A DNA stretch of 64,000 nt, taken from the NCBI GenBank assembly GCA_016748015.1, contig JAAOMT010000176.1, positions 395,277 through 459,276 of the forward strand, in the 5' to 3' direction. Shown here in pieces: positions 17,549 through 64,000 of this stretch. The translations under genes were made by a program, and so were the position numbers. Origin of the DNA: Geosiphon pyriformis uo1. Taxonomy: Eukaryota; Fungi; Glomeromycota. The notes beneath the pieces are model-generated. The model searched no databases, was not told where the DNA came from, and saw nothing but the letters and a program-made list of their open reading frames with translations. Every line of letters begins with the position of its first letter. The stretch's first letter is position 1.

Positions 17549-17559
17549 TAACCTTCTCC

Positions 17560-18236: not shown

Positions 18237-18364
18237 TATAAAAGATTTGAAAATAAAAGAAAATTATTTTTGGTGTATGGGTTTTTATGTTATTTTTGCT
18301 TTTGTTTTTTTTTTGTGAGATTGTTTCTAAATTATAAGGAGATAACTATAATAATAAATTTAAG

Positions 18365-19765: not shown

Positions 19766-19793
19766 TAATTCAAATGAGTGTTGGTTTTGTATT

Positions 19794-22700: not shown

Positions 22701-25394
22701 GCAATAGTAACAGGTATGATTTCCATATTCTTCCTTGGGTGAAATACAAGCTCCCATTGATGAGAGTTTCTTGTGGCAATCTTTGCATTTGAGTGGAATG
22801 TAAGAGCATTGTTTTCGTGGTTCTGTTTTTGAATAGAAGATATTCCATCTGGGTGTCACTGGTTCTTTTGTTTCAAGAAAATTGTTTGTTGAAAAATACT
22901 GTTGTTTAGTTTCATCAGCCCAATTGAAGGTTGATCTAAGTGCCATAAATGTTTCAATGATGGGTTTTTCTTTTTCTGGTTTGAATTCAAAAGCCAGAGC
23001 TTTTTCGGAGCATTTGTTGAATGTACCACAAGTGGCAGGTACCCAGGCATGTTTTCCATGGTAGGAAATTGTTAACTCTTATGTCTTTCAATTCAGATTA
23101 GCATTGGCTTTTTGGAGCCAATCATTTCCGATAAGAGCTTGGTATTGGGGAACATCCATAATCAGAACTTTGACTGAAATGGTGATTCCGTCAATTGTAA
23201 ATGAGAAGTTGTCAATTTCTCCTACTGGAGTCTTTTTCATGCCATCGGCAGTAACAATTACTGTCTGAGCTGGTCGGTCAACATTTCTTTTTAACTGTTG
23301 CATCAACTGGTAGGTGATGATGCTTCCAGTGAATTCACTGTTTAGAATCAAGTGAATTGGCTTTCCTTCTGCTTCAGCTTCTGTGTACATTGCAGTGATG
23401 GCTTTTTGCTCATTAACTGCTGCATTGTTAAGCAAGAATGGTGATTCATTTGCTTCAAATTCGAAAGAGAATATATCTGAAAGATTGGCATTTTCAGCAA
23501 TTCTGGCTGGTGGAATTGTGGTAGGAGTATAGGAAGGGTTTTGTTGTTGTGCTGCAGCTCTACCTTCTGAAAGTGCAGTATGGTAAAAATCCTGTTCTTC
23601 TGGCATCATAAGATAACTGGGTTGAGTATGATAGTGGTTGGGTCTATGTTGATTCAAATTTTGAGTGGTTAATTGGTTGTTGGAATTTAATCTGTTGTTG
23701 TTTGTTGGAAAACGGTTTTGTGGTGTAAATTGATTATGTTGAACCAATTTTCTAGCTAGCACTTGATATTGTGGTGTGGATGGTTGTTGATACTGTTGTT
23801 GAATTAGTTGTAGAGCAGATTGATAATAGTGGTTTGGATATTGTGGCCTTGGTAAATATCGAGCTGGTGGTGATAGATAATATGATTGTTGTGGTTGAAA
23901 ATAACATTGATTATTTCTCTGTTGTTGGTCTTATTGCAATTTTCTACAATCACGTTTCCAGTATCCTGAAATTCTACAATAATGACAATTTTGGATTTGG
24001 TTGTTGGATGGTAGTCTGAAGTTGTTTTGATTGCATTATTGTAGGGGTTGATATTTTTGTGGTTGTTGTGATTGCTGCGGCAGCTGTTGTTGCTGTTGGT
24101 TGGTGAAGTAGTTTTCAACTTTTTTGGTTAATTGGTCAATCTTTTTTTCAGCTGCTGAGCTGGTTTTGCCAATAGCCAGGTTAACAAGTTTGGTACAGTT
24201 GGCTTCTTCCATGGCCATTTCATAGTTTTTCGCCTGTTGAATAGCAGTGGCTAAATTTTCTGGTGCATGTGGGTAAACTTTCTTGATAAGTTTGTCTTTT
24301 AGTCCAGCAATGAATTGATCCAAGATTTGTGCATTGGAGTAGTATTCATTGGTTTCCAATTGGTGAATCCTTCTAAGCAGTTTGTTAAATTTCCCAAGAT
24401 AGGTCATAACTGATTTACTTGGTTCTTGCTTGATATTTCAGAACCAATTTTGAAGAGTGATAGAAGTGTTATTGTTAGTGAACTGTTCTAGAAAAGCAGT
24501 TTTGAATGCTTCCCAGTGTTCTGGTGAGGCTTCCAAGTTTTCAAACCATTCACCGGCCGTTCCTTGTAAGAAGTATAGAATTGCTTTTAATATTCTAGCA
24601 GCATTTCAACCATTTACATCTCCTGCTTTTGAGACTTTGTCAAGCCATTTTTGAGGACTGGTTTCACTGTCTTCTTCTGTGAACTCAGGGATTTTTGTGA
24701 TATATGTGGAGGCCATTTTTTCTTCATTTTCTGAGTCTTCTGTTTCTTGTTCTGATTCGGTCTCTTCACTTTGATTTTCTGCTAAGTAGTCAATAAAGTT
24801 TGTGCTGGTTAATATTGGTTTCTGTTGTTGAATAGGGCTTTTGGATGACTGAAAATCTTCTATTCTTAAAAACTGAATAAATGGTGAGCTTGGTGTTTGT
24901 GGTTAAGCAAGTGAAGCTAGAAATAGTGTGATTGAGAATGGTAATTTAAAGCTGGTTCCTTGTTCTGGAGTTTGTAAATGTTTGGCAGTGGTTTTAGGTG
25001 TATTGGAAGTAGTTCTGAGTTTTTGTTTCCTTTTTCTTTTTCTTTTTTCTGTTTCTGATTCAAAACCAAGAGAAAATTTCTGTTCTACTGGGTAATTCTC
25101 TTTACAATACTGAATGATATTGAAGTTGAGTTCTTGGAAATATGTTTTAAGTGTTTGACTGTTAAAATTCTGAGTGTTTAGACAAGAGTAATGTATTAAG
25201 TTTTCATATAAGTTGTGTCTAACTTCTGAAATGTTGTAGTCTCCAAAAAGATAATTGTTGATGTAATTTTCAATATACTGGTAAAGTGTTTTCTTAAATG
25301 TTTCAATTCTGTCTGGGATGTTAAATCTCTGCTTGCAGTGGGTGTAGATTGACTGATAATACTCTAGAGTTTTTGGATCTGTTTGAGTCGCCAC
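19794..25394 (-). pseudogene. ORF1 of family B: Gag-PR-Cys-rich-dUTPase-RT-RNase H in one reading frame
   Basis: ORF fragments starting at 24407, 23762, 22946, 22445, 21464 and 20831 share one frame ending at TAG 19794-19796; knuckle CHYC..G..KRDC, dUTPase RSSLA/GGIINAGYTG/RGTQGFGSTG, RT YLDD. Confidence 0.9.
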
Positions 25395-25440
25395 TTTTGA
25401 AGTTGTTGTTGCTGTGTTATTTCTGTGGAAGAACACCAAA

Positions 25441-26422
25441 TGTTACCAGAGGTTTTTGGTCTCTTTTCTTGAATGTTGTAACTGTCTGTTGATTGCAAAT
25501 TCACGTTTTCTAGAAGTAGTTGAACCTCCAATAATTGAATTTATCTTCAAATTATCTCCTATAATTTGAACTACTGGGCTTATAAGTGGAATGGCCAATT
25601 CTGTATTAGTTGCTTTGTGTAGTTACATTGTAGTGAATGTTAACTCTTTTCCAGGAATTGCTCATCTGGAAGCTCACTAAAAATGTGTAGTTACTTTGCT
25701 GTGAAAGTCAATTCTTCTACAGAAATCTTGTCTGTAGGCTACCCTAATGATGGTAATAAGAAAATAAAAGAAAGAAAATAAAAGAAATGTAAAAGAAATA
25801 GAATTCTGTCAGGAGAAACGTTTTCTATCCAGGCCTGGAGTCACTAACAGTTTAATGAAATTGGTAGCTAATCAATTTCAAAATGTTAGTTGGGTTTTGG
25901 GGATTTTCCAAGTGCAATAATTAAAGAATTTGGTTTTTTAATTTATTTAATATTTATTTCTTTTTGTGTGTGTAGGAATGGTTCTAAGTAATAAATCTAA
26001 AGTAAGATATATTTTCTCGAAAAAAGAAGCTCTTCTTTTATACAACTTGTTGTAACACTATTCTATGAACTTGAACTTTGCTCTTTTCTATAATTTCGCT
26101 GAACTAAAAATACATTTCAGTGAATTATAAGTTATTTCTGCAAACTATTAGATATTTTGGTAAACTATTAATTATTTCGGCAAATTTCTACAAATTTTGG
26201 CAAACTTTTGAATGTTACATATTTTGGGGTATTGTATGATTGATCATTGCACTTAGGTTACATTTGTGTTATGTACAAATTGGGTTATTAATTAAATGAT
26301 AATTTCGAACATTTTGCTAATGTAATAAGTGATAATTTGAAATGATAATATATGCTAATTAATGATAAGATTTATAAGGGTAATTTCATGCTAAACAATA
26401 TTTCTAATTTCGTCTAATAACA
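25441..26422 (-). repeat. 5' LTR of the family B element
   Basis: TG...CA termini, followed by a PBS-like sequence on the minus strand. Confidence 0.93.
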
Positions 26423-37996: not shown

Positions 37997-39696
37997 TTAA
38001 GAGTTATCTAAATATAATAGAAAGTAAAATAAATGTTAAACAATAGCAAACATAAAAGTATATTACAGATTTTTTTTATATAATTTCTTACCTTTAAGCA
38101 AATAGACTAATTCTTTTAAGGAGTAAAATTTAATAATTAAATTAAAGAATTAACCAATTAAACAAAATATTTCTTATAAATTTAATTAATATAAACCAAC
38201 CTTTAGAAAAATCCATCATTTGCAAAATTAAAGGGCGACTTGTATAAACTGCTCCTGGATGAATGTGAGTTGTTGTTTTTGAGTCGTTCTTTAACATTTC
38301 TTTTACGTATTTCTCTGATTCTTTAAACTGATTCTCATTCTCAGACTCTTTATCTATATAGTCAAGTTCCCCCAACTTCTTTTCAACTTCCTTGGCAGTA
38401 GGACGATTCTTAGGATTAGGATGCCAACACTTTTTAATTATTTCGGCAATCGAAGGTGGAATAAGTGGGAAGGTAATCTTAGGCCTAGCCCCATTTAAAA
38501 TAGCCATTATAAGGATATTATCATGAGAATAATCATGAAAGGGAGGCTTTCCTGTTACTAATTCCCATAATAACATTCCATAACTATAAATATCACCAGC
38601 TGAAGTAAACTTTTCTCCTCTTAAAACTTCTGGTGGAATGTATGGAATCACTCCGTATATCTTTTTCTCATCTATTGTTATTATTGTAGTTGTTTTTGTT
38701 GTAGTTGTTATTGTTATTGTTGTTGCTGCTGTTGTTCTTGAACTTGTTGTCGTTTCTGAGTTCGATGTTGATGTCGTTGTTTCTGTTGTTGTTTGAGGGT
38801 TTGTAGGTTGAGATAATCCGAGGTCTCCAATTCTAGAGCTACAGCCAAATAGATTTTCTACAAGTAGGATGTTACCCGAGTGTAGGTTACGGTGAACCAT
38901 ACCAGCAGAATGAATGGTTTCAAGTCCTTGAGCTAAATTCCAAGCGATCATCAATTTATCTTCCCAACTTAATGAATGAAAATTTGTTGATAAATAATTT
39001 CTCATGTCTCCATGTTTGGCAAATTCCATCACAATTCCATACTCGAGTGTTTCAACGTTTTGTGTAATCCCCCATATTGAAGAGATATTTATCAAGTCGT
39101 CCTGGTTTTTATAAATAAACATGGCTCTTTGAATATTTAACTATGAACACAGTGTAAAATGTAAATAAACGGTAATATACAGTAAATAAATAATAGGTAA
39201 ATATGAATTAAACATAAATATAAATATAATAAATGAATTGTTTGTTTACCTCTTTAAACACTTCTGAACTGTTCGTTTTTATAATTTTTATTGCTACTTC
39301 TTTGCCTATTCTGTCTCTTTCATATTCCATTGAACCATGATGTTTTATTGTATCTGTATTAATTAATCCATCAAGTAGGGTTGCTTTATAAATTATACCA
39401 AACCCTCCTCTACCAATTTCGTTGATATTCGATAAATGCTTCCATGGAATCCATTCGTGATAATTCAAATAACCACTATCCTCTTTATCTTCATTATTAG
39501 GTGGAAAATAAATTGGATTCTTAATTATTTCATCCACTTCGTCATTGCCACTTGAAAAGTCTTTATAATGTTTTTCAAAAAATATGAACTGGCATGCATT
39601 ACAAAAATTAAAATTTTGAATGCTATTTCGACACCATATACATTCGTTACAATCATGAGGATACGGACGAGTTCTTTTAATTTCAATGTTTTCCAT
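37997..39696 (-). CDS. Glomeromycotina-type TKL-like protein kinase (exons 39696-39250, 39140-38201, probably 38112-38092 and 38007-37997)
   Basis: N-terminal CNECIWC..CNAC, EWIPW, IGRGGFGIIYKA, VAIK, HRNLHSGNIL, IGDLGLS, YGVIPYIPPEVL, DIYSYGM, CWHPNPKNRPT; GT-AG introns; last micro-exons less certain. Confidence 0.85.
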
Positions 39697-40022
39697 GGTA
39701 TAAAATAAAAAACAAATAATAAGGGATAAAATAAGAAGAAAATTATTCGAAAAAGGGTTTTTTTTTTAAAAAGCTTTTATTAATAGTATGTTTAAAAAGT
39801 AACTTTTTTAAAGATGGAGTTCGTATTTATGTTATTTCTCTATTTTAACAAATCAACTTATTTCATCAAAACTGTGATTCGTTATAAATCATACTAAATA
39901 GGTTTTCTATAGTACACAAAAGCTCTCTCTTGTCTCATTGTCTTATTGTCTTATAAAATAATAATTATAAAACGATTTAGGCTTTGTGAAGATATTAAAT
40001 AAAGTTTAAATTAATCAGGCTA

Positions 40023-42400: not shown

Positions 42401-42779
42401 AATAATTATGAAGTTAAGCATCTATATATTTTCATTTTCTATCGAAACATTCGAGAGCTAACAAAAACAACAATAAATTCGAAGCGTCCTTTTCTTTTTT
42501 AGTGCAAGGTATTCTTTTATGCATCATCATCATATCAAACCTAAATTTAGGCAACAAGAAAATCAGAGAATGGAAAACTTGTTTGGGGTCTTTTCTTTAT
42601 TATAGTTACTTAAACCTATTTAGTATTATTTGTGGGGAATAATAGTTTGATGAATAACGAAATTTTATGATTTATTAACATAGAGAAACAACATAAATAA
42701 AGCTTTAAAAAAAAACTCACTCTTCGAATAATAACTTTAATACTTTATCCACACTTATCCTTTGTTCTTTATCCACATT

Positions 42780-43761
42780 ATGGAAAACATTGAAATTAAA
42801 AGAACTCGTCCATATTCTCATGATTGTAATAAATGTAAATCGTGTCAACAGAGTATTAAAAATACAATAGTAAAAATTTTTGTATTGTATGCCCAGTTCT
42901 TATTTTTTGAAAAACTTTATCGTAACTTTTCAAGCGGCAATAAAGTAGTTGATGAAATAATCAAGAATCCAATCTATATTCTACCTAATAATAAAAATGA
43001 ATATAAAGATGATAGTGGTTATTTGAATTATTATGAATGGATTCATTGGGAACGTTTGTCAAATATCAAGGAAATTGGTAGAGGAGGGTTCGGTATAATT
43101 TATAAAGCAACCCTAATTGATGGATTAATTGATAAATCTACAATAAAACATCATGGTTCAATGGAATATAAAAAGGAAGGAAAAGACAGAGAAGTAGTAA
43201 TAAAAATTATAAAAACGAACAGTTCAGAAATGTTTAAAGAGGTAAACAAACAATTCATTTATTATATTTATATTTATATTTATGTTTAATTCATATTTAC
43301 CTATTATTTATTTATTTATTTATTTACTGTATATTACTTTTTACGCTGTGTTCATAGTTAAATATTCAAAGAGCTGGGTTTGTTAATAACAACGATAACG
43401 ACTTGTGTTTAATCTTTTCACAATATAGGGGATTACGCAAAACGCTGAAACACTCGAGTATGGAATTGTGATACCCTTTGCCAAACTTGGAGACATGCGA
43501 AAATATTTAACAACAAATTTTCATTCTACGAGTTGGGAAATTAAATTAAACATCGCACATGATATAGCTATTGGACTTAAAACCATTCATTCTTCTGGTA
43601 TGGTTCATCGTAACCTAAACTCGGGCAACATCCTACTTGTACTTGACTATTACCCTAGAATTGGAGACCTCGGATTATATCAACCTACAAACCATCAAAC
43701 AACAACAGAAACAACGACATCAACATCGAACTCAGAAACGATAACAAGTTCAAGAACAACA
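42780..43761 (+). pseudogene. Truncated paralog of the 37997-39696 kinase
   Basis: Same start MENIEIKRTRPY and same intron (43242-43357); frameshift plus TGG>TAG near 43425; HRNLNSGNIL; joins LINE RT sequence after the Thr-rich segment. Confidence 0.88.
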
Positions 43762-45039: not shown

Positions 45040-46980
45040 TTTTGGTCCTCATAATTTAGAAACCAATTAAGCATTAATGTAATGGTTTTTTTAGTTAAGT
45101 TAATTATCAGTTTCTAAAGATTTTTTTGTTTAAAGTTATATTTATTGAGCTTTTTTGTTATAAAATACAAAGTTTTGGTTTTTTTTAATTGTGTTGTTGT
45201 TATTGTATTTTTTTTTAAACTAATAAATATAATTACTAAGATCTGGTATTGTTTTTTTATTTTTTTGGTAAGTTAATAAGATAAAATTAATATTTAAATT
45301 TAAGAAAAGCTTTTTTTTTTACCAAATTATCATAAAATTTATTTTTAGACAATTTATTTTCAATATTATTACTTTTTAAGAAAAAAAAATATAAAAAAAT
45401 ATAAAATAAAATAAAATAAAAAAACAAAAGAAAAAAAAAGAGAAATTAATATTGTCAATTATTATAATTAAGAGTAATTAGTTCAAGTTATTAGAGTTTC
45501 AAAGCTGTTTATACTGTTACCAGTAGAATTTTAGCTATTGATTAACATAAAATTACTCTCATAATTCTTATTATTAATTAGTATATATTATTATCATTTC
45601 AATTATCACTTATTATTTAATCAAATTATTAAATATTATTATTTAATTAATAATTCAATTTATACCATAGAAATTAAAATAATCAAATTACACAATACCT
45701 TAAACCATTTAATATTCAAAAATTCGCCGAAATTAGCAGAAATTGGCCGAAATAATCAATAATTTGTAGAAATAACTTGTAGTTTACCAAAATGTATCTT
45801 TAGTTTGCCAAAATTATAGCAAAAAGAAAAATACAAATTCAAAGACTAGTACTATAACAAGTTGTATAAAAAAGAGCTTCTCTCTTTAAAAAAATATATC
45901 TTATTATAATATTTTATTTTAGATATTTTAATTGAAACAAATTATCTCTTACATATTTTTATAAAATTAAATAAAAATTAAAAATATTCAAAAACCAAAT
46001 CCTTAATTATTATACTTGAAATTTACAAAACTCAACTAATGTTTTGAAATTGATTAGTTACCAATTTCAATAAACTGTTAATAACTTCAGACCTGAATAG
46101 AAAACGTTTTTCTTAACAGAATTCTATTTTTTTTACATTTTTTTTATTTTTTCTTTCTTTTCTTATTATAATTATTAGGATAGCCTATAAACAAAATTTC
46201 TGTAGAAAATTTGACTTTCACAATAAAGTAACTATGCATTTTTTAGTAAGCTTTTAAACAAGAAATTCCTGGGAAAAAGTTGATATTTATTACAACATAA
46301 CTATATAAAGTAACTGGTATAGAATTGGCCATTCTACTTATAAGTTCAGCAGTTCAATTATAAAAGATAATTTGAAGATAAATTCAATTATTGAAGGTTC
46401 AATTACTTTTAAAAAATGTGAATTAGCAACAAATAAACATTAACAACATTTAAGAAAAGAAACCAAAAACCTCTGGTAACAATACTAATAGCATCTAACT
46501 TGAAATAAAAGTAATAAAGACAATTAATTCAATTTTAACAATCAGAATATTGAAATTATGTACATATAATATAAAATAAAAAGATTTTATTAAACTAATT
46601 TACAAATATATATGTATAATAAAGTTAATTTTTAGGCTAAGTTTAAGATATTTAAAAGAAAAGTAATTTTTGTTTTTGTTTTCTTGTTGTTGTTTTTTTA
46701 TTTGCTAAAATTATTTGTTTTTATACATATTTTTTAGTTTTATAAAATTGTTTTCAATTACTTATTATTACTAGCTATTGTTTATTATTTTTTTTATTTT
46801 TTTATTTTTTTATGTTATAATTAATTATTCTATACTATGACTAATTATTCTGTATTATTTTATGTTTTTGTATATTATCTTGTATTATTTTAAGTTATTT
46901 TATATTATTTTATAATATTTTGTATTATTACGTTTTTTTATATTATTACATATTAATCACGTTTTTTCAATAATTTTAAA
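45040..46980 (-). mobile_element. Highly decayed family A-like LTR remnant (boundaries approximate), itself containing a family B solo LTR
   Basis: 45380-45510 resembles the A-rich/aagagctattgttc block of family A LTRs and interrupts LINE ORF2. Confidence 0.45.
45515..46481 (+). mobile_element. Solo LTR, Gypsy family B
   Basis: tgttaccagtagaatt...cctctggtaaca; TSD ATAC/ATAC. Confidence 0.92.
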
Positions 46981-48089: not shown

Positions 48090-48451
48090 TAATATTAGTA
48101 GAATTTAGTTAATAATTAACATAAAATTATTTTTATAAATTTCTATTCTTAATTAACATATATTATTATTAATTTAATTATTACTTATTATTTAATTAAA
48201 TTCTTAAATATTACTATTTAATTAATAACCTAATTTATATAAATACAAATACAATAATTAGATTATATAATATTCTAAACTCTATAACATTCAAAAATTT
48301 ACTAAATTTTGTAGAATTTTGTGAAATAATTTAATAGTTTACTAAAATAATTTGTAGTTTATAAAAATAACTTGTAATTTACCAAAATGTATTTTTTGTT
48401 TATCAAAATATTAATAAAAAAAAAGTGCAAGTTTAAAAATTAGTATTATAA
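48090..48451 (+). mobile_element. 5' part of a decayed family B LTR, cut by the tail of the next LINE
   Basis: Colinear with 45515-45860 until the T-rich tail at 48452. Confidence 0.75.
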
Positions 48452-49233: not shown

Positions 49234-50105
49234 TGTTACTCATAGAAATATAGGAAATATATTAGCATACTTATTAGCCAATCAGAAGTAAGCATAGTAA
49301 ATGTAGAATTTCAGGATTCCTCTCAGGAATTGCAGGATTCCAGGAATTTCAAAATTCTCTCATGAGAAATTGCAGGATTTCAGAATTCCAGAATTCCTCT
49401 CAAAGGAATCGCAGGATTCCAGAAATTACAGGATTCCTGTCGTGAAGAATCAAGGAATTGAGGAATCCCAATTATATATATATAGTGGTAGTATTAGAAA
49501 CAGAAAAAACAGAATCGATATCACAGAATCCTTAACCAAGAAACAAAATCATCAAATAAATAATTATTCCATATCTCAATTCACTCTCCACTATCAACAC
49601 TTCATGTTGATAATAATTGATACTTAACCACACTGAAACAATAGCTCTTGATTATGGCTATTGATGGAATACTAATCTGCCGAACTGTTTAGGCTTATTT
49701 ATTTTCTTTTTTTATTTTCTTTTATTTCTTTTTTTTATTTTATTTGCTTTGATTGTTGTGTATACTAATTGATTAAAAGATTAAGCATGGAGTTATTGAC
49801 GTCAAGAATAGTCTGGTAAAAGACCCAGAAATAAGGGTAGGATTTTATATATTATTAGATAGCTTACCAGAAGGGCACAACTGCCAGACTAAATCCAGCC
49901 ATCATGCTGAGAAAGAAATTGGGAAAACTCTTGGAAAGATACACCTACTATTAACACTATTGAATCTCTGTCTATTATACAAAGAACTCCATCAAAACCT
50001 TCAGATACAATATTTTGCAGAACCTCATTCACGGAAGTAGCTTTTTTTGAGCACCAAGTTACGAATTGTTATTTAATTCAATAGCAGAAATAATCACCTG
50101 TAACA
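49234..50105 (+). repeat. 5' LTR of family A copy 2 (CCAAT box agccaatcag, U3 repeats, TATA-like tatatata)
   Basis: Direct repeat of 58529-59416. Confidence 0.95.
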
Positions 50106-50107
50106 TT

Positions 50108-50124
50108 TGGTGCTCTCTGTAAGG
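50108..50124 (+). promoter_or_regulatory. Candidate primer-binding site (tRNA not assigned)
   Basis: TGG start 2 nt after the LTR end; equivalent tggtg(c/t)t in all three full elements. Confidence 0.7.
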
Positions 50125-50167
50125 TATAATCTTACAGAAAACCAGCACCAACAACACCAAACCAAAA

Positions 50168-53100
50168 GTGGCAGAATCAGAAAATATAGGAGCAAACCAT
50201 TTAGAATTTGCAAAATCCTTATTTCAACACTATTGTCAATACTTGGAATTAAACCACAATCATATATCCGCCGAATCAGCCTTCAATTTCTACGTCAACA
50301 AAAAAATTTCCTCTTTATTAGGAACACCAGTGAATACTGAATCAGCAAGAGAAACTTTCTATAAGGAATTAATTTAAAACACTAACTTATCAACAAATCA
50401 TAATTTCGCATCCATTATCACTAAGATCAACAAAGAAATTAAACATCACACTCAACAAAAATATTCAATTACATATGCTAGTAAAGGCAAGGGAAAATTA
50501 CAAACACCAGTAGTAACACCCAGAAAATTACAGCCACCTGCTTGAAAGAAAAACAGAGTTGAATCCCCAGGCAACTCATCCTATCACTATACACCTGGAA
50601 GCACCATCAACATATCATCAACAGACACATTCCCATCAACTGCGACATCAGCATTTGGACGATTCCCATTCCAAAGTAGACAAAAGAAAACAGAATTGTT
50701 AGGACCATATGGCAAATACTTTGAGAGATTTAATTCGCGATCATCAACTTCATTAGGACTTTGATTACCACTGCCTCCACCAGATTTCAGAATCTCTGAT
50801 CCATGGAAAGTAGCAGAATCAGAAAAAGAGGAAGAAGAATCAAAGGATCAAGAATTTACTTACCAGTGCCCGATTACTGAAAACTGGGAAGTTGAAACCC
50901 CAAATTTTCAAATTCAGCAAAATCCAGATCTAGAAAATTTGGAAATCAAAACTCCAAATCATCAAAGGCAGAACAATCCAAACTCCGAATTAATTAATCA
51001 GCAAAACTTACTTCCAGTAATTGTCATCGATCAACCACCGATTAATCCCATAGCCGAACCCATACAGCAGCCACTTCAACTACCACCTCAACAACCAGTA
51101 CAACAACAACTGCTTTAACAGCCACAACCACCTAACTTAGATCTAATGGCCTACGCACCAATCGCAAAACTTGACAACTTTACTGGCAAAAAAGATGATG
51201 CTCAAATATGGCTGAATGATGTAGAAAAGGCCATCACAGCCAATGGATAGAATGACGTTCAAGCAATGCAAACCATTCCCTACTTTCTCAAGGATACCGC
51301 CAATTCATGGTACCAGAGCTTGATTAATAAACCACAAGATTTTAATGCCTTCAAAGCAAAATTCCTAAGATACTTTAGCAACAATAACAGCATCAATTGC
51401 CTAGTCAATGCATTCACCACCATAAAACAAGGAGAAACTGAAGCAGTTACCACTTATCTGGAATGCTTCCATCAAAACATATGCCAAATTCAAGCAATTG
51501 ATGCCAACTATTTCACAGCACCACAGATACTCAATCAGTTTATCCGTGGTCTGTGCAGCAGCATCTTGCAACATGTATGTTCATTGCATCCAGGTACCCT
51601 TCAAGACACAGTTACATGCACTAGAGATTTTGAATCCGCTGAGTCAGAGGCTAACCATGCCCAAGCCGTTAATCTAGTAATGAATGGATCATCTGAATTG
51701 GATTCCAAATTGGAGAAATTCAGTGAATCAATTAATAAGAGATTGGAAGGATACTTAGCTAACAATTATGCCATTTATCAGCCTTCACAACGATGCAATA
51801 ATTAAGGAAACTCTAATCGTGCCCAAAATCAGTTATGGCCATTTTCATCGACCAATCAACAGTGGCAACAAGAAACACATATCTACCACTATTGTGGTAA
51901 ACAAGGACACATCCAAATTGACTGTTGCCAGCATTTAAATAACCAACGATCAGGAAATCTATATTGAAACCCCGATTGCCAGTTCCAAACTCCAAATCAG
52001 TACCCAAATCAAAACCAACCCACTTACCTACCAGTGATGCAGTCATCCATCTATCAGTCTCCAGTATACCAAGCTCCAATCTATCAACCACAGCCACAAG
52101 TAATTTATCAACAACCGCAGCCGCAATTAATCTATCAACCCCAACAAACCCAAACACTGCCCCAAAGCTTACTACCCAATGGAACCCAAAGACTGAAAAT
52201 AACTCAACAGAGCTGGAGATCGGCGATAGTAGTCCATCAACCGATCCTCAGTTCTTCACAGCAATCATCTGGATTACGCCAGCAGAATTCAGGTACCGGC
52301 CAAGCCCAGAACCCAAATTCCCAGAACTATTTAAGTCTCCTGGTCACCCCAGAAGATGCCTTAACTAATAATCCAGCATTCGCCCAAAAACAACCACTCA
52401 CCAGTAATATCCCACCTGCTACTATCACCAAAAACGAGTCCTTGGCTGCTATCTTCTCATTCGAATTTGAGGAAACAGCTGCAATGCCATTACTTAGTGG
52501 AGCCGCTCTTGAAGCCAAACCAATCACCACAATGTATACTGACGCCAAAGTCAAAGGACAATCCATCAAATTGATCCTTGACAGCAGTTCAGTAGGCAGT
52601 ATTATCACATGGCAACTCATGGACTGATTAGGTCACCAAGTTGATTGAGCTGCCAGTGCCAGAATTATCACAGCCGATGGAGCGACCAAAACTCCAATCA
52701 GTAAAATTGACAACTTCTCTTTTGAAATCAATGGCATTGTGACTCCCATTAAAGTTCTAGTGATGGAAGCCACTCAATATCAAGCTCTTGTTGGTAATGA
52801 CTGGCTATCCAAAGTCAATGTGACGTTAGATTGGAACACCCAGGAACTCCAACTAACACATCAAGGCCAACACATATGTGTACCGGCCACGTGTGGCCAC
52901 TTCAAGACTTCTCCAAGAGAGAAACTATTGATCGAACTAGAGGAGGAGAAAGAGAAATCTACCTGGGAAGCCTACCAAGTGTCATGGGCTGATGAAAAGC
53001 ACAACGAACTGCCACCAATACTCCCCTGGAATAAACAACGACAATAGAAAAAGGAAACAAAAGGAAGAACTTACTTGGAAAACTGATGACTTGACCTGGA

Positions 53101-56100
53101 CCGACAATGATGAGAGTGAACCAACTTCAAGCTGAGAATGGGAAGAAAACAAAGAAAAAAAGGGAAAAGGGAAAGAGAGGGAGAAAGAAAACACTCAAGC
53201 CAACAATGCTTATATCCCATACACCTACAGTCAACAACAACCATCAACTTATCACTGACCCAAACTGATATGTGTTGATTGTGGCAAGAAATTGTCATCA
53301 ATAGGCACATGCTATGGTGACAACAAAGAATATCAGACAGCAACCAAGTTTTATTACCACACATGCTATATCAAACATTTTGGAAGACCAAAACAAATGA
53401 GAAAATGGGATAATACACCATATATAGCCTGTGGAAAAACTCTCTTGGATGATAGGATATGGAACGACATCCCAGAACATAGAGGAACATGCGACGTATT
53501 ATGTCAATACACGATTCTAATAAGCGACTGGGTAAGAAAAGAAACTCCAATAGAAGCAGCCTGGAAAAGAGCCATACAGTGACTGGACAATTGTCCCTAT
53601 GATGACGACGAGATTTGGCAAATGGCACTTGCCAAAATCAAAGAGGCGTCACCTGAGAAAATAAAAACAATCAAAGACAACCCCCAGAATCTTTAGAGCT
53701 TGACTGGAATGCAGAACCCATCATAAATCTCCTGGATCTGGAACAATTTCACGAACACTACCAAGAATTAGCACCCACAAGGAAAGAACAAAAACAATGG
53801 TTAAGGCAGTTAAATGCTCGACTATGTCAACACTGTCTAATTCCCTGTGACTTTCAGTATTGTGATGAGTGTGACCTCATTTACAATCCACCACCATGCA
53901 TGATCTATACGATCTCTGAAGAGGAAAAACCAATCAGCAGTTGTGCATCAGAATCGGAATCAATTTTCAATCCTGATTCAAACTCTAACAATGATAACAA
54001 CTAAAACACCAGTTCCAGTTCCGTTCAATATGGTGACAACAACAATACCAATTCCAACTCAGATTCAAACTCTGATTTAAATTACGAACAATACATTGCA
54101 TTACCAGATCTCTCCAAGGAACAAGAGTTGAAATGATATAGTGACAATGGGGAAGGTATTATGCCAGGATGTGCGCATGATATGGATGCAGGGTTTGATC
54201 TGAGATATCCAGGAAAAGATGCCATCAAATTGGAACTGCATTCACACACCTGCATTGATCTGAAAATAACACTAGAAATTCCGGCAACAACAATAGTTCA
54301 ATTAGCATCTAGGAGTAGTTTAGCGAAAAGAGGGATCAATATAAAAGGAGGAATAATTGACACGGGATATGTGAGAAATATCATTGCCATGCTACAAAAT
54401 GATTCCAAAAAGGCCTATATAATAGAGCCCAACAAAAAGATAGCACAGGCAATATTCCTGCCTCTGGTTAGAGTAGCTCAGTTAGTGTTAGTGAGAAAGA
54501 GGGAGGAATTAAGAATAACAGTGAAAGAAATACAAGAATTTGGATCAATGGGTAGAATAGATGTACCAGTCAATATGGCAGAGAAAAAAATTGTTGGCCA
54601 AGGAGAAATTATCTCAACTGGTCAAGCTATTTTCATTCCACTATATAACCAGTATATGCTAGCAATAGAAAGGAAAGAAAAGGAACAAGGACAAATTTTT
54701 GAAGCTAAAGCAAATCTTTGTGAATCAGGAGAGATTGGGTTGATCAATCTCCACATACTAGCCAAAAGCTATAGCAGCATAAAAATTCCCATCTACAACA
54801 ATACTGGCAATGTTATCAACATACCAGAAGAAACCACTATCAGATATTTAACCACAAAAATAGAGGACCAACCACCCAACCCTATTCCAGACTTTCCACA
54901 ACTTTGTGGATATATTGACATCACATCACAAACAATCTATGGATGAGATGAATGTTATTTGCTCCAACCAGAACAATTGGAACAAATGAACATGGGAAAC
55001 TTAGATCCACTCCAATGTATGCAGCTCAAGATATTACTCAACAATTTCAATGACATCTTTGCCAGTAAAAATGAGTTTGGCCAAACTGACATCATCCAGC
55101 ATCAGATCAAGACTGAAGATGCAATGCCAATCAAACAAAGAGCATACAGAGTGCCACCAGCCAGCCATGAAATCATTTGTCAAGAGATAAACAGAATGCT
55201 TGACAATGGGCTAATTCAATCATCAATGAGCTCATGGTCGTCACCAGTGGTACTCGTCCATAAGAAGAATAGAAAAATCTGGTTTTGTGTAGACTACAGG
55301 AAACTCAATGATATAACTCGTGGAGACAGTTATCCAACTCCACGAATACAGAAATTATTTGACACTTTTGGTGAGAACAAATGGTTCTCAACATTAGATT
55401 TGAACAGTGGTTACTGACAAGTAGTTATGAATTCAGCTGACAAAGAGAAGACAGCATTTACTACTAGAGAAAAGAATTTCGAATTTGAAGTAATGCTATT
55501 CGGCTTAACCAATGCCCCAGCAACTTTTCAGCAGCTAATAGAAATTGTTTATACTGACTTATTGTAGAAATCAGTAGTTGTATACTTGGATGACACCAAT
55601 GTATTCTCAAAAATGTTTGATGATCATCTTCATTATCTTCAACAAGTGTTTAAAAGACTAAGAAAAGCAGGACTAAAGTTAAATGCAACAAAGTGCTTCT
55701 TCAGCAAGACAGAACTAAAATTCTTGGGACACATAGTCAGCAAAGATGGCATCAAAACGGATCCAGAAAAAATAAAAATAGTAAAGAACTTTCCAGTGCT
55801 GACCAATATGACAGAACTGAAATCATTCTTGGGATTCGCCAGCTACTATCAACGTTTTATTAAGAACTTTTCCAAGATAGCGCAGCCACTCAACCAACTG
55901 CAGAACAAAGATACAAAATATGAATGGACCGAAAGTCAACAAGAAGCTTTTAATACTCTAAAAAAAAAGCTTATACAAGCTCCAGTACTGATCTATTCAG
56001 ATCACAGCAAACCATTCATCATTACCACGGATGTATCTGGCCAGGCATTAGGAACAGTACTATCTCAGAGAGGACCAAACAGCAGGGAACATCCAGTAGC

Positions 56101-56386
56101 ATATGCCAGCAGAGGTTTAACACCAGCCGAAAAAAACTATGGAACACCAGAAAAAGAACACTTAGCAATATACTGGTTAGTCATGAAATGGAAAGAATAT
56201 TTAAGCCAGAAGTTTGAAGTGTATACAGATTACAAAGAATTAACATCACTTCAAAAACAAAAATTTGGAGATGGAAGACAGTCAAGATGGAAAATGGCAC
56301 TCGCACCATATAAGTATACTATACATTATAAAAAAGGAAAAGACAATAGAAATGTGAACAGTTTATCACAAATAAGACAAATCTAA
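50168..56386 (+). pseudogene. ORF1 of A copy 2: Gag-PR-Cys-rich-dUTPase-RT-RNase H
   Basis: Fragments at 50168, 51266, 52034, 52739, 54161, 54959 and 55586 are in one frame (one compensated indel pair around 53030-53690); LILDSSS, AGFDL/RSSLA/GGIIDTGY, YLDD, TDVSG, EKNYG. Confidence 0.92.
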
Positions 56387-56448
56387 GAACATTTCAACCC
56401 AAAAATATAACAAAACCAGAACAATACCAACAAAAAATACAACAAAAG

Positions 56449-57831
56449 ATGAACATACAAAAATATCAACAATTACAACATTATATAAACACTCAACAGT
56501 TCAAGGAGAATTTATCTCAAACAAAATGAAAGAGTATTAAACAACAATCAAAATATTTTATCACTTACCAAAATATACTTTATCAGAAAAATAGAAGGGA
56601 TCCAAATCAACCAACCAGAATAATTACAGAGCCAGAAAAAGAGACAATATTATTCAACATGCACTCAAATCCAACAGCAGGACATTTTCACAAAGAAGCA
56701 ACCATGGAAAGAACCAGAAAGAGATACTATTGGCCATCAATATACCCAAACATCATTCAATATGTTCAAAATTGTGATACTTGTCAGCAAAGAGAAGGAA
56801 CAAGACCCAGTAAACCATTAAAACCAATCAAAGTGGAACAACCATTTGACTGTATTGGAATTGATTTAGTCGGACCATTAACAATCACCAGCAGAGGAAA
56901 CAGATACATAGCGGTAGCTATGGACTATCTCACTAAATGGCCAGAGGCAAAAGCAATTCAAAGAGTAGATGCAGAATCTGTTGCCAAATTTGTTCATCAG
57001 GATTTGATTTGTCGACATGGATGTCCAAAAGAATTATTATCAGACCAAAGAACTCATTTTGTGAACAGAACATTAACAGAATTGAGCCAAAGATTCAGAA
57101 TTAAGAGACTATTATCATCATCATACCATCCACAAACCAATGGATTAGTAGAAAGATTCAATAGAACATTGTGTGAAGCAATAGCTAAGCTCAGCCAAAA
57201 AAACCAGAACGATTGGGATTTGTTCATACCATTAGTACTATTTGCTTATTGGACAATGAAACAAGATACTACACAAGCAACACCATTTGAATTAGTATAT
57301 GGAAGAACAGCAACGTTACCAGTAGAGAGAGAAATTAATACATATCCAGCTGAACCAATAACAGAAGAAAATTTTCAAGAAACATTGCTGAGAAGAACAT
57401 ATGACTTAATGGAAACATTGGAAAACAAACAAAGAAGAGCAGCTGATAATATTCAAAAGTCACAAAAAAAACAGAAAAAAAGACATGATAGTTAACTACC
57501 AGATAAACCAGTTAAATTCAAGATTGGAGACAAAGTATTACTACATCGTACCAAAGCGAAAAAACAGTGAAGTGAAAAATTCAACTCCAAATGGGATGGA
57601 CCATTTCACATAGAAGAAATTCTAGGAAATGGAGCTTACAAATTAAGATTGGATAACAAAATTTTAACCAAAGCAGCACATGGAAATCGACTGAAGCCAT
57701 ATTACAACATTATACTACCATCTACCAGTAATATTCCACAATTAGGAGTACAGAGAATACTAGTCTGACCAGAGGAGATTCCACGAGATCTGGAACCAAT
57801 TGTTCTTATCAACAACAACACGTTAAATTAA
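56449..57831 (+). pseudogene. Stand-alone integrase ORF of A copy 2 (461 codons, a few stops)
   Basis: Own ATG 62 nt after the RNase H stop; HHCC (HSNPTAGH..CDTC), IDLVGP..SDQ..NGLVERFN, WDGPF, LEPIVLIN. Confidence 0.92.
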
Positions 57832-57855
57832 TCAATCAAAAGAATATATAAAGAC

Positions 57856-58515
57856 ATGGTAGATGTGACAGAAAATATCAGAAAAATGGAAATTACAGAC
57901 AACATTTACACACTAGCACAACAACTCTTTTAATTAATCCAACACCAGGAAATGGAGATTACAATCAATCAACAAACCATTTGATATCAAGATACTAGAA
58001 AGACATTGCAGCTCAGAACACTGAAAAAAACTGAAAATATGGTGGACAAAATCATGGCGAAAATAAAATTAGCAATAAAAGAATCAACAAAAGAGTCACT
58101 ATATCAAGAGTTGACTAAAGAAACTTGGAATTGGTTGATACAACAATTTCCACCAAACTATTGTTATTTTTACTTGGGACAACATGTAAATATCCAGAAT
58201 CTATATACGGATAAAACAAAGCGATTATTCGACAAAAGAATACTACAACAATTAGAACATTTTGTGGAAAAAAACAACTTATCCACACAAGCCTGAGCCA
58301 TATACCAAATACACACAGCATTTCAGGATAAACCAGAAATATTGCTCAACAAAGCAATAGATATGGTTACCAGTAATCAATTGGGAAAAATCACCAATGC
58401 TCAATTTGAAAAATTACAGACCCAAATAACACAAGTAATTCTTAAAAACAAAATCCAGAAAATACTTCAAGAAGAGAAATTACATGAGTTGGATTTTGAC
58501 GGAGCTCAATATTAA
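57856..58515 (+). pseudogene. ORF3 of A copy 2 (220 codons, three internal stops), unknown function
   Basis: ATG 24 nt after the integrase stop; ends LDFDGAQY* at the PPT; homologs in A copy 1 and family B. Confidence 0.82.
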
Positions 58516-58528
58516 AAGGAGAGAATAA

Positions 58529-59416
58529 TGTTACTTATAGAAATATAGGAAATATATTAGCATACTTATTAGTCAATCAGAAGTAAGTATAATAAATGTG
58601 GAATTCCAGGATTCCTCTCAGGAATTGCAGGATTCCAGGATTCCTCTCAGGAATTGCAGGATTCCAGGAATTTCAAGATTCCCTAACAAGGAATTGTAGA
58701 ATTCCAGAATTCCAAGATTCCTCTCAAAGGAATTGCAGGATTCCAGGAATTTCAGGATTCCTGTCATGAAGAATCAAGGAATTGAGGAATCCCAATTATG
58801 TATATATAATGGTAGTGTTAGAAACAGAAAAGACAGAATCGATATCACAGAATCCTTAACCAAGAAACAAAATCATCAAATAAATAATTATTTCATATCT
58901 CAATTCACTCTCCACTATCAACACTTCATGTTGATAGTAATTGATACTTAACCACACTAGAACAATAGCTCTTGATCATGGCTATTGATAGAATACTAAA
59001 TTGCTGAACTGCCTAGGCTTATTTATTTTCTTTTATTTCTTTTATTTATTTTATTTGCTTTGATTGTTGTGTATACTAATTAATTAAAAGATTAAGCACG
59101 GAGTTATTGACGTCAAGAATAGCCTGGTAAAAGACCCAGAAATAAGGGTAGGATTTTATATATTATTAGATAGCTTACCAGAAGGGCACGATTACCAGAC
59201 TAAATCTGGCCACCATGCTGAGAAAAAAATTGGGAAAACTTTTGGAAAGATACACCTACTATCGACACTATTGAATCTCTGTCTATTATACAAAAGACTC
59301 CATCAAAACTTTTAGATACAACATTTTGCAGAACCTCATCCACGGAAGTAGCTTTTTTTAAGCACCAAATTACGGGTTGTTATTTAATTCAACAGCCAAA
59401 ATAATCACCTGTAACA
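58529..59416 (+). repeat. 3' LTR of family A copy 2
   Basis: TG...CA; carries an extra ~29-bp U3 repeat unit relative to the 5' LTR. Confidence 0.95.
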
Positions 59417-62400
59417 ATGCTTACTAGTGAAACCAGCAGCCAAATGAGAATCTGAATGTCACACCAAAGAAGATCTGAACCAATCAATGTCCAAACGCAA
59501 GCTTTCTATCATAATCCGAGAGCTCGAACCCATCTCCTATCGTGTACAATGAACAGATCGGAACACATCATGGACAAAATGTCTAGAATTACCAAATACC
59601 GCAGTATCACCAGCCATTAAAAACCACTCACTGATAGAAGGAGGTAGGTGCAAGTTAGAAAAAGCAGCAGCCTTAGCTAAAGCATCAGCACGCTCATTGC
59701 CTAAGACACCCGAATGGCCCTTAATTTTAATCCAACTAACATCCAAGTTTTTGCGATGAATGACATTGGCGATGTAACAACACTCAATCCAACAACAATT
59801 CCTAAAATCAGGGCCAGCCGATAAAGACTCCAACCTGCAAGCATCAATAGCCGCCTGGCTGTCCAAGAACAAATCTACCGAACAAAAGGAAAGAACACAC
59901 TCAAGAGCTAAAGCAATGGCCTGCAGCTCCACCAAAGTAGAAAAAACCACACCAGAAATTCTCACACCCAGACCCAAATCAATGTCCTCAAAGAAAACTG
60001 CAGCACCAGCCAACATGTCAACCATGCCCAAGTTACTCAAAGACCCATCAGTGTACACAGAGAGATAGGTGACATCCACACCCAACAGATTGTGACAAAC
60101 AACACCAAAACCAAGAGACTGATGGATGTTATAAGAACTATCAACACCATTATGAGTGGAATGACCAGAAGGAGAAGCTATATCACCAAGAAAATAAACA
60201 GAGAGATCAAACCAGGAGGGGACTGGGCCACAGGAGTCCAGTCTCTTCCAATGCTTGAAAGTCTTCCAATCAAAAACAATGCCATTCCAGTTACAAAGCT
60301 GTTTCACAAAAGCAATACCATAATGCCTGAGAGAGGAGACACATTTGAAGAAAATTTTCTCACTGAGTACCAAAGACATAGGAGTACCACATCAAAGACA
60401 AAAAACACCAGCCAGAAAGCCACCCAAAGACAAATTACATTCAGAAAAAATATGAACTACACTTGCCAAAAAGTTGTTTGAAGGGCTGACTCTAACACAA
60501 ACAGAAAACAACAAAGGGTGACGAGGACTCCAGTTGAGAACCTGGAGATTATAAGACCTATGAAAGAACAAACGACCTAAAACACCAACCAAATTCACAA
60601 AAGCAATAACAGAAGCTGACTTGCTCTTAGCCTGAATCTGCTCAAAAGTCTTTAAATTGTACAAGGAAGGATGATGAAGTGCATCATTGGGAAAGTCCAG
60701 AGGCAGCCCAGATTTGGACTTCAGGCCCTTGCAAATCAAAGTGTCCCACTTATTACACACACTGAGAGGAATAAAACTGAACTGAATTCTGTAGCTGATG
60801 ATGGGAAAGAGAACTGAAGACACTAAATAAGCAAACTGTTTTCTAAAATAACCTTTCTCAGAATGAAATTGACAAAAAACTGAATGTCTGAATGCGCCTT
60901 AACCAAGCTAGGCTTCGAAAGACCATCAGAAGATAAAAAAATACCCAGATAATAATAAGGTTCACCTCTTTTAGTGATGGAAATTGGCATACCACTAATA
61001 GTTAGATAAGAAGCAGCAACCCAACAGTTGATAGAAATGGCCACAGTCTTGTCATTGTTTATCGAAATGTCATTCAAATGAAAGAACTCACTAGCAACAT
61101 TGAGGATGTGTTGTGTAGCAGCTTGGCTGCTACTGACCCAGATAGTATCATCAACAAAAGCACTAGCGGCCAGAAACGATGACAGCCCAGCTTGAGATTC
61201 CACCCAGCCAGTCTTAGAAACAAAATGAGAAATCAACTTGTAACCACAAACACTTTTTTGTCTCTTAACCTCACACAAAAGCAAGTCATAAAATATGCGC
61301 CAGAGAAGTGGTGAAAAAACTTCCCCCTGATTCAATCCATTGTGAACATAATATCCATTAGTTAAACCAAAATCTGTCATTATTTTATTAGTGCAACCAT
61401 TATAAATGCCACCAAAAAATCTGATGAATTTGTCACATATTTTGATCTTAATCAAACTCCTCTTGAAATGTTCCCAACCAACAGAATTATAAGTTTTGCG
61501 CATATCCTGTAAAACCAGCCACAACTTTCGGTTCTTTTCCAAAGCATCTTCGATTACCGAACCAATAGTGAAGATAGGTAATTGAGTAGACGTACCTTTC
61601 AGAACAGAGAAATTGTCCCCGCGGAGAACATCAAAAGTGCTACAAGCCAGAGAGATCTGATCTGAAAAAATCTTGGAAAGAACCTTGCGAGCTGTTTCAA
61701 TTAAAGCAATAGGACAGGTATTTATAAGAATCCCCTCCCACTTATAAAGTTTAGGGATTATTGAGACCCAGGCTTCCCTCCAAGGTCCAGATATTGACTC
61801 ACAATCCAAACAGAAATTCAAGAGCACCAAAAGCATATCCAAGATTGCCTTGTCACAGTGTTTCCAAAGTTCATTAGTGATATCAGAAAGACCAGCCGTT
61901 TTTCCATTGGACAAATTTGAAATAACACCAAACATCTCATCAAAACTGATTGAATGTATTACATCAGAGAAGGCACCATCAAAGACATGATCCAAAGGCC
62001 GAAACTGCCTTGCCCAATCACCAGAGATATCAGAAGCCACCACACGTCTCTTAGTCCAACCCTTCATAATTCCATTCACCTTAGATTTAACCAAATCAGG
62101 CTCCAAGACCAACTTCCCATCATCCACCAAATGATCCAACACCACTTTATGAACAGGACACTTCAAAACACTCCTAATGGTGTAACCTTTATTCATCTCA
62201 AAACTCTCCATTCTCTTCTCAATAGCCTGCCTTATACAAGATTCTTCAGCACGCTTAGATTCCAATAACTTAGAAGAGCAGTAAGACTTTCTCACCTTAG
62301 CCAGCCCAGAACAGATCACATCAAAGCTGGTGCCAGAAAGAAACAGAGCTTTCACTAATGAAGCACTCACAGAATTAAGTCTGTCCCAAGTATCCAACAA

Positions 62401-63721
62401 CGAGGCAAAATCCCTACCAGAAACCAACCAAGAAGCCTTCACCAGTTTAGACACAAGTAGCTCAAGTCTATGAAACCAGAAAGATACCTTATTAAAAACA
62501 CAATTGAAACCCTTAAATCATTTTTTTTTGAACGTTTCACCAGCTGAAAAAACCATAACCTTATGAACAATATCCCATATTGCATCCAGATCAGAAAACT
62601 GCATAGCCACAACATACTCATCCAAGAACATAACCACATTAGCAGCCATAGCATTCCTGAATTCTGACCACTTAATCTTATTGGCATCTTTGATATCATA
62701 CTTCCAATAATCTTTATTAGCTTGTTTACACAGTAAATTTAGCTGAACATCGAGCAGGCCACCCAGTCTCACAGAAACATAAACGGCTTTGTGATTGGTA
62801 TCAAAATATTTCTCAATGCCATCCACACCACAATCCACTACCACTCCAGCCAAATTAGAGGAAACAAACACATAGTCAATTGTCTTAGTGATACTATAAG
62901 AATTGCACCAAGTAGGTGACTTTACAAGAGAGCTCCTCCCCAGAGAGTTAATCAAACCCAAATCAAAACATTTTTTAAAGCTGGCACATTTGTGCAAACC
63001 ATCCTCATTAAAATCACCACCAAGAATAACAAAAGAAGACTTATTAACGGCTTTAGCAATAAGAGAGTTGATCTTACCAGCCTGAGAAAACCAAGCCACC
63101 AATGAAGCACCAGCATAGAGCCCCAAAATAGACACCAAAAATTTATTTTTGAAAAGCAACTTGATGGATAAGAGCTAACCAGACACCTCAAAAATCTTGC
63201 AGACATGCTTTGCTAAAGAAGAATTCACGACGATTAACACCCCAGCATCCGAAGAACCAGAATCCAGATCAGAAGCAAAAACTTGAACACCATCAAATTT
63301 GTCGGCTAACCATGGGTGAACTTTCCTTTTAAGCTTTGACTCTGTGAAAATAGAAACCAAATTATTCATATCTTTGTGCCAACAAATGACATCATCTTGC
63401 TTCGCAGGATTGTTCAACCCATGAACATTACATGTAGCAATTTTTTATACCAGACTATTCATTGAGAAAGAGGGAGAGGAAAAGCACCACCTGCCAAAGC
63501 CAAACTATCCAAGTGCGCTAATAGGCTTATGACTGAAGCAGAAAGATCTTCCAACATGTTTTCTAATTTTACAACTTCAGATGAGGCAGTTGAACCAAGA
63601 ATGGCAGCAGTCTTGTCACTAGTGGCATCACCTAAACCCATTCCCATTACTATATCCTCTCCTTGATTCTGTAATGGGAAGTCACCAGCAGCTGACGTCC
63701 AGGACTAGGCTGGGAAACTGC

Positions 63722-64000
63722 TGTTACCAGTAGAATTTTAGCTATTAATTAGCATGAAATTTCCTTTATAATTCCTATCATTAATTAGCATATATTATTA
63801 TCGTTTCGAATTTCACTTATTATTTAATCAAATTAGCAATTATCATCATTTAATCAATAACCCGATTTGGACCATAGAAATTGAGATGATCAATTTACAC
63901 AATACCCTGAACCATATAACATAGCCAAAATTCGCCGAAATTAATGAAAATTGGCCGAAATAATTCATAGTTCAGCGAAATAACTTGTAGTTCGCCGAAA
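63722..64000 (+). mobile_element. Start of a well-preserved family B LTR inserted in LINE ORF1 (runs off the window)
   Basis: tgttaccagtagaattttagc start as at 45515; CpGs retained in ttcgccgaaa repeats. Confidence 0.9.

Follow-up and report, generated by a model that had tools for sequence, protein, structure and literature searches.

In textbook long terminal repeat (LTR) retrotransposons and in retroviruses, integrase enters the particle as part of Gag-Pol. A 64-kb stretch of the genome of the fungus Geosiphon pyriformis uo1 (64,000 nucleotides of contig JAAOMT010000176.1, positions 395,277 to 459,276; hereafter the window, whose own numbering is used below) holds an element with a different layout. 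Positions 49234–59416 are a decayed Ty3/Gypsy LTR retrotransposon, here called A1, in which the integrase and a third open reading frame (ORF3) follow Gag-Pol as frames of their own. The question is whether these frames are genes or what decay has left of an ordinary fused polyprotein. We find that the stop after RNase H, the ATG of the integrase and ORF3 are not products of decay: the family and its intact relatives have all of them in conserved form. A preliminary description of the window had proposed the succession Gag-Pol, integrase and ORF3, with LTRs, primer-binding site (PBS) and polypurine tract (PPT), in three copies from two families. This layout is borne out, and the element proves to be a Ty3/Gypsy retrotransposon outside the chromoviruses, in which a single Gag-Pol ORF ends at RNase H and is followed by two genuine further ORFs, the integrase and ORF3. 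LTR elements make up 41.2% of the Geosiphon genome (PMC11952901, accessible text).

In A1, Pol ends with a conserved TAA at 56384–56386, followed by an A/C-rich spacer of 62 nucleotides (nt) without ATG (stop and spacer together 56384–56448, + strand). ORF2 (56449–57831, + strand) then opens with its own ATG and encodes a stand-alone integrase of 460 amino acids (aa), in which Pfam, run on the A1 frames with stops read as X, recognizes the H2C2, DDE/rve and GPF/SH3 domains; its best solved relative is Ty3 Gag-Pol (7q5b, E 1e-30). In A1, in A2 (a second copy of the same family) and in B (a copy of another family), Pol ends at the same 'LSxxRQx*' position. The integrase starts 62, 30 and 46 nt after the Pol stop in A1, A2 and B, respectively, hence in three different relative frames, the spacer of A2 being shorter by 32 nt than that of A1. 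Because spacer length and frame vary in this way, read-through or a programmed frameshift into integrase is ruled out.

A fused Pol-integrase of the ordinary kind, ending in a long C-terminal tail and broken up by stops, could in principle come to look like this: C-to-T changes have badly eroded the copies, the A2 spacer is in frame, and ORF3 lies in the integrase frame in A1 and A2. Yet spacers occur in all three frames, ORF3 of B lies in another frame, 128 nt from the integrase, and relatives with open frames retain both breaks. Furthermore, the Pol stop is fixed across family copies: among 1,857 contigs aligned on 56330–56530, which are family copies rather than an independent sample and come from a read run that may be the assembly's own source, no variant letter reaches 5% at 56384–56386, and the integrase ATG varies only by G>A, at 7%. 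We regard decay of a fused polyprotein as extremely improbable.

The same arrangement is found among homologous integrases and in relatives from soil metagenomes. A methionine occupies the alignment column of the A1 integrase ATG in 100 of the 120 best homologous integrases, in a search restricted to proteins of 253–805 aa, where fused forms could not appear. A search of soil metagenomes without that size restriction returned 80 loci, 42 of which carry RNase H upstream of the integrase; a script called 24 of these fused and 18 split. By hand, 13 of the 18 are true splits, nine with the ATG exactly at the conserved column and four with it near the Pol stop, and the remaining five (L037, L050, L054, L060 and L062) were set aside as probable broken fused copies. 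All ten loci with at least 40% integrase identity to A1 are split. One locus, L018, holds a whole element whose two LTRs share 96.8% identity and in which Gag-PR (protease) and reverse transcriptase (RT)-RNase H are followed by a stop, the integrase, a further stop and ORF3. The preliminary description had named young copies with a continuous Pol and no ORF3 as a finding that would speak against it; this did not turn up, and the intact relatives, L018 included, are split. Another locus, L005, has a PPT and an LTR, and its PBS begins like those of the window copies. In viral contigs, the search returned only four distant integrases.

Two observations on these loci are recorded for themselves. 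L005:6345-6730 shows two elements in tandem around one shared LTR, which leads straight into a PBS and another Gag-like frame. Before the Pol stop, L005 (3505-4438, 311 aa) and L018 (4953-6702, about 580 aa) carry an acidic extension after RNase H that contains Trp and Cys and has no Pfam match.

ORF3 of A1 (57856–58515, + strand) lies ahead of the PPT and encodes a soluble, predicted helical protein of 219 aa that belongs to no known family. Between A1 and A2, its ratio of nonsynonymous to synonymous substitution rates (dN/dS) is 0.24 (bootstrap 0.15–0.37), next to 0.25 for the integrase and 0.44 and 1.11 for shifted frames; ORF3 is a real gene under purifying selection. The 110 homologues recovered are all labelled Geosiphon pyriformis in their source, and open full-length forms among the predicted proteins measure 207–209 aa in family A and 239 aa in family B. 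At least 110 predicted Geosiphon 'hypothetical proteins' are pieces of this ORF3, and their annotation is corrected here. The ORF3s of families A and B are homologous to each other (HH probability 84%, E 7e-6, 187 columns).

Among the 80 metagenome loci, 11 carry an ORF of 120–290 aa, of one family, directly after the integrase; these 11 seeded the ORF3 profile, and their own matches to it are partly circular. The profile matches none of the 24 fused loci. With Geosiphon rows included, it finds 525 representatives at E ≤0.001. ORF3 is common among split elements, not universal. Compared with Geosiphon-free profiles, family B ORF3 gives moderate matches (HH probability 64–68%), and with a joint A+B profile 13 of 136 score above the best of 272 decoys. 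We take the window ORF3 to be a likely homologue of the wide family, on the strength of the link by way of B and of a common position and order of motifs.

What kind of protein is it? The preliminary description had called the genome virus-like; beyond the plan of three ORFs, the data lend this no support. None of 13 ORF3 proteins has a transmembrane stretch (best 19-residue hydropathy ≤1.05), and ORF3 is not an envelope protein; a review notes, in its accessible part, that an ORF3 in downstream position need not be an env (PMC5718144). The model of family A ORF3 is poor (pLDDT, the predicted local distance difference test, 44), so that the fold rests on the relative in L017, modelled as an eight-helix bundle with pLDDT 89 and a predicted template modelling score (pTM) of 0.84. 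With this fold, Foldseek returned no match at E 0.001 in the PDB or in BFVD, a collection of viral folds. VIA-align over 48,161 chains gave a best Z of 4.6 (root-mean-square deviation 7.8, 92 residues aligned) and none at Z ≥5, which does not by itself prove a new fold. A sequence search of the PDB yielded only Mdm2 at E 0.4 or worse, the ESM Atlas no usable match and Pfam no family. ORF3 defines a large unnamed protein family, the 525 representatives above, with a confident model of one relative and no structural match.

Do the split elements form one lineage? In trees made of the metagenome loci and the window copies, without named reference elements, the split elements come together each time; 0 of 500 shuffles gave a value as low. 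The joint RT+integrase tree, made without L080 and L036, contains a 10-row core of the three window copies and seven split loci with support 85/95. The integrase tree holds a 36-row group that includes the window copies and no fused locus, with a support of 86 in the SH-like approximate likelihood ratio test (SH-aLRT). These trees point to a core clade of split elements as likely. Among more distant integrase relatives, L036, L079 and L080 have the integrase ahead of RT, the Gmr1-like order.

These trees also bear on whether this one family captured a DNA transposase of the Ginger kind or a gene akin to env. Judged by eye only, the integrase N-terminus has a Tyr/Pro-rich stretch that resembles the YPYY motif found before the zinc finger of YPYY-type integrases, as such a capture might leave. 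Against it, no terminal inverted repeats (TIRs) were observed flanking the integrase, the integrases closest to it follow RT-RNase H in their own loci, the RT and integrase trees give overlapping neighbours, and ORF3 has no membrane helix. We consider a capture by this family very unlikely.

A group that leaves integrase out of Gag-Pol needs some other means of translating, dosing and packaging it. For the window element, we favour, with slightly more than even confidence, the reading of a decayed fungal Ty3/Gypsy whose integrase and ORF3 are separate genes after Gag-Pol, likely made by re-initiation on the full-length RNA. The cycle would be that of an ordinary LTR element, with tRNA-type priming at the PBS, plus-strand synthesis from the PPT and a 4-bp target duplication, as retroelement biology suggests. 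On the full-length RNA, ribosomes that have passed the upstream stop would initiate again and so produce the integrase and ORF3. Because it is not part of Gag-Pol, the integrase would presumably be brought to the particle or the complementary DNA in trans, and gene order makes ORF3 a candidate adaptor or regulator of this delivery. Several features of the junctions fit re-initiation on full-length RNA: the Pol-integrase spacer is free of ATG in 13 of 18 junctions, stop and start overlap in two (L023 and L045), a purine stands at -3 in 15 of 19 integrase starts, and the integrase-ORF3 spacer lacks ATG in 12 of 13 cases.

Among the possible routes of integrase expression, we give re-initiation about an even chance, sub-genomic or spliced RNA a clearly smaller one, entry guided by RNA structure an unlikely place, and any other route hardly any. 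Foamy viruses make Pol from its own sub-genomic mRNA, and integrase and ORF3 could likewise come from sub-genomic mRNAs of their own, by an internal promoter or by splicing. The range of the spacers, from overlap to 727 nt, would suit this, as would the 7 and 12 ATGs in the long ones and the pyrimidine content of some (62–68% in L001 and L009). Yet an AG within the last 20 nt before the ATG is found in only 7 of 18 junctions (in A1, but not in A2 and B), and the overlapping stop and start of L023 and L045 leave no leader for an RNA of its own. We hold this alternative to be possible, at well below even confidence.

A third route would be a folded RNA before the integrase ATG that drives internal ribosome entry or RNA processing, and that short-spacer families such as that of A1 have lost or never had. 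Eight loci carry a 44-nt motif (L002:583-626, L005:4461-4504, L006:183-226, L011:488-531, L015:173-216, L019:6-49, L026:490-533 and L031:17-60); its model was built from seven of them and the eighth was found by search. It consists of an outer 3-bp stem and a 6-bp hairpin with a conserved 8-nt loop. In seven loci its end lies no more than about 20 nt from the ATG, and in the eighth it lies farther upstream. In the alignment, 96.8% of cells pair and five of nine pairs change on both sides, which none of 500 shuffles reaches. The carriers fall in one integrase subclade (SH-aLRT 96), and no Rfam match rises above chance. However, the window lacks the motif (best E 0.45), as do the other split loci, its structure was derived from the same, related sequences, and it could instead serve packaging or reverse transcription. 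As the driver of integrase expression we consider it unlikely. The motif was not found in the viral contigs or prokaryote genomes searched; L004 has a weak match.

A wider reading, which we put forward as rather doubtful, is that of a widespread fungal lineage that has taken integrase out of Pol and formed a three-gene, operon-like unit, with delivery in trans aided by the helical ORF3, and with sub-lineages that begin integrase translation either by stop-restart or through structured RNA of a new class.

Several results weigh against the three-gene interpretation or against parts of it. On the joint RT+integrase tree, the split loci L013, L027, L033 and L045 fall outside the 10-row core. In a careful tree of RT-RNase H, the split elements are not recovered as a single clade (4 changes), and a 13-row split clade (SH-aLRT 96) appears only once L033 and L080 are removed; these trees do not establish monophyly for all split elements. 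Split loci L023, L027 and L033 have no match to the ORF3 profile, despite room downstream. Family A ORF3 does not rise above decoys against non-Geosiphon profiles (P0001 -9.6 bits; 0 of 136), which leaves A1 ORF3 tied to the wider family only via family B and position. As to expression, ATGs occur in 5 of the 18 Pol-integrase spacers, and two spacers are long (365 and 727 nt), which suits sub-genomic RNA better. Gaps of 30–190 nt also exceed what tight coupling of stop and start usually needs. Both the route of integrase expression and the role of ORF3 are put forward as proposals.

Upstream of the split, ORF1 (50168–56386, + strand) encodes Gag, protease, a Cys-rich region, dUTPase, RT and RNase H. 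It is decayed in A1, but copy B can be read in one frame from Gag to RNase H, which indicates that ORF1 was a single polyprotein of roughly 2,000 residues. Pfam places the capsid (Ty3_capsid, Retrotrans_gag) at 51155–51637, the aspartyl protease at 52541–52810, the dUTPase at 54161–54514 (E 1e-16) and RT and RNase H at 55262–56311, all on the + strand, with YLDD at 55583. An in-frame ATG at 51146 opens the capsid region, and a degenerate zinc knuckle lies at 51887. Between protease and dUTPase, the Cys-rich region (53241–53900, + strand) is conserved in A2 and B and has a dN/dS of 0.15 over about 140 codons; it belongs to no known family, with no Pfam match better than E 0.02. The first 190 codons of ORF1 are under purifying selection (dN/dS 0.22), which makes the possible GTG start at 50168 conceivable as a GUG start. 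A GTG-GC after an A/C-rich leader stands at the expected ORF1 start in A1 (50168), A2 (11716) and B (about 25394, - strand).

The 5' LTR of A1 (49234–50105, + strand, 872 bp) and its 3' LTR (58529–59416, + strand, 888 bp) both run from TGT to ACA; they are 92.7% identical, and 58 of their 63 differences are transitions. A short PBS-like, TGG-type sequence (TTTGGTGCTC at 50106; 50106–50117, + strand) follows the 5' LTR, and the PPT (58515–58528, + strand) precedes the 3' LTR. No tRNA gene lies within the 64-kb window. A 9-nt inverted repeat links U5 (50049–50057) to the PBS region (50107–50115), its complement lying 57 nt before the LTR end. A2 has the same 57-nt offset with a matching change at the end of the repeat, and the repeat is missing from B and L005; a U5-PBS stem is one possible reading of it. 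Self-priming elements of the Tf1/sushi type have a PBS complementary to the 5' end of their own RNA. Self-priming in this manner was considered here and left unsupported; the 9-nt complement occurs in A1 and A2, but not in B or L005.

Copy A2 (10790–31608, + strand) shares the family and layout of A1, with the integrase ATG at 28632 and the ORF3 ATG at 30039. It is interrupted by copy B and, inside its Gag region, by an LTR fragment near 12289–12783. Copy B (16567–26418, - strand), nested in A2, represents the second family with the same layout; its integrase ATG is at 19747, and its ORF3 (- strand) runs from 18236 into the first bases of its 3' LTR. With A1, the window thus holds three copies from two families. 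The 4-bp target duplications claimed in the preliminary description are perfect in A2 (GCAT/GCAT) and B (CTGG/CTGG) and imperfect in A1, whose flanks ACAC/ATGC would fit a single 4-mer in which a CpG has decayed on either strand. The three copies are all defunct; in A1, Gag-Pol (~2,075 codons) has 18 in-frame stops and two frameshifts, the integrase four stops and ORF3 three.

Elsewhere in the window, LTRs akin to those of families A and B, solo or partial, lie at 4637–5540, 6569–7516, 7990–8891, 12289–12783, 45510–46488, 48093–48451 and 63721–64000. Directly behind the 3' LTR of A1, 59537–62517 (- strand) holds a decayed element with RT and RNase H, probably a non-LTR retrotransposon of the LINE (long interspersed nuclear element) type. 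An inverted repeat pair at 38730–39777 and 42699–43761, about 1 kb each and 83% identical, may represent the ends of a DNA transposon or a foldback element.

How does this element compare with known systems? Like Ty3/Gypsy elements (Metaviridae, for instance yeast Ty3), it has LTRs with TG...CA ends, a PBS, a PPT, the order protease, RT, RNase H, integrase, and a capsid, RT and integrase of Gypsy type. Unlike them, it encodes its integrase in a gene apart, opened by an ATG of its own, instead of at the C-terminus of Pol, which is the usual though not strictly defining position in Ty3/Gypsy; Gag and Pol share one frame, and an extra ORF3 follows. Gmr1-like Gypsy elements carry the integrase ahead of RT, which A1 does not. 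In contrast to chromoviruses, the A1 integrase has no chromodomain: as the preliminary description had noticed, neither the integrase, which ends about 40 aa past SH3/GPF, nor ORF3 gives a Chromo match at E 0.1 in Pfam. Most fungal Gypsy elements carry a chromodomain, according to the accessible text of PMC3248453.

Errantivirus-like, env-bearing Gypsy elements differ in that the A1 ORF3 has no transmembrane anchor and that the model of its relative is small and all-helical. Closer in position are the non-env ORF3s of rotifer and plant LTR elements, which are sense ORFs between pol and the 3' LTR; in the accessible part of that review (PMC5718144), the rotifer ORF3s are captured enzymes, whereas A1 ORF3 matches no Pfam family or solved fold. 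Like the dUTPase-bearing fungal Gypsy elements, A1 has its dUTPase between protease and RT, a position described for PosPlaTy3-5 of Postia, elements of Phanerochaete and Tmt1 of Tuber (PMC2864245) and known from fungal elements also in PMC6431247, both as far as their accessible text goes. The elements in PMC2864245 come from a survey of chromodomain-bearing elements, whose accessible portion does not mention a separate integrase, whereas A1 is split. Nor does the dUTPase mark the split group; among the metagenome loci it was detected only in L045.

The combination had been called undescribed. This stands for the literature searched, except that the dUTPase between protease and RT was already known in fungal Gypsy elements (PMC2864245, accessible text). 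No Gypsy element with a stand-alone integrase was found in the open full-text literature; most subscription journals, Repbase, GyDB, REXdb and Dfam lay outside this comparison, so an entry may exist. In the accessible text of PMC2582038 and PMC5911963, 'separate ORF' concerns gag versus pol, and two papers on transposons of arbuscular mycorrhizal fungi (one of them PMC11952901) treat Gypsy, in their accessible parts, only as a superfamily.

A further comparison is with Ginger DNA transposases, which are free integrase-like proteins, and with YPYY-type Gypsy integrases. According to the accessible text of PMC2836005, Ginger1 transposases are like complete Gypsy integrases and bear a YPYY motif at the N-terminus, Ginger1 has been proposed to derive from Gypsy, and YPYY-type integrases occur in Athila/Tat, Gypsy-1_RO and DGLT-A. 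The window elements share with these a free-standing integrase of ~400 aa with zinc finger, DDE and GPY/F, the 4-bp target duplication and TGT ends. In contrast, Ginger elements carry TIRs, lack RT and have OTU or Ulp1 domains at the C-terminus, whereas A1 has direct LTRs and RT. In Rhizophagus, the many annotated stand-alone 'DDE integrases' may be parts of elements of the A1 kind and not of DNA transposons. Altogether, the split-integrase, ORF3-bearing Ty3/Gypsy is real, conserved and widespread, and new relative to the literature searched. If a three-gene lineage with a free integrase is what it represents, it would be a living intermediate for the proposed Gypsy origin of Ginger DNA transposons.

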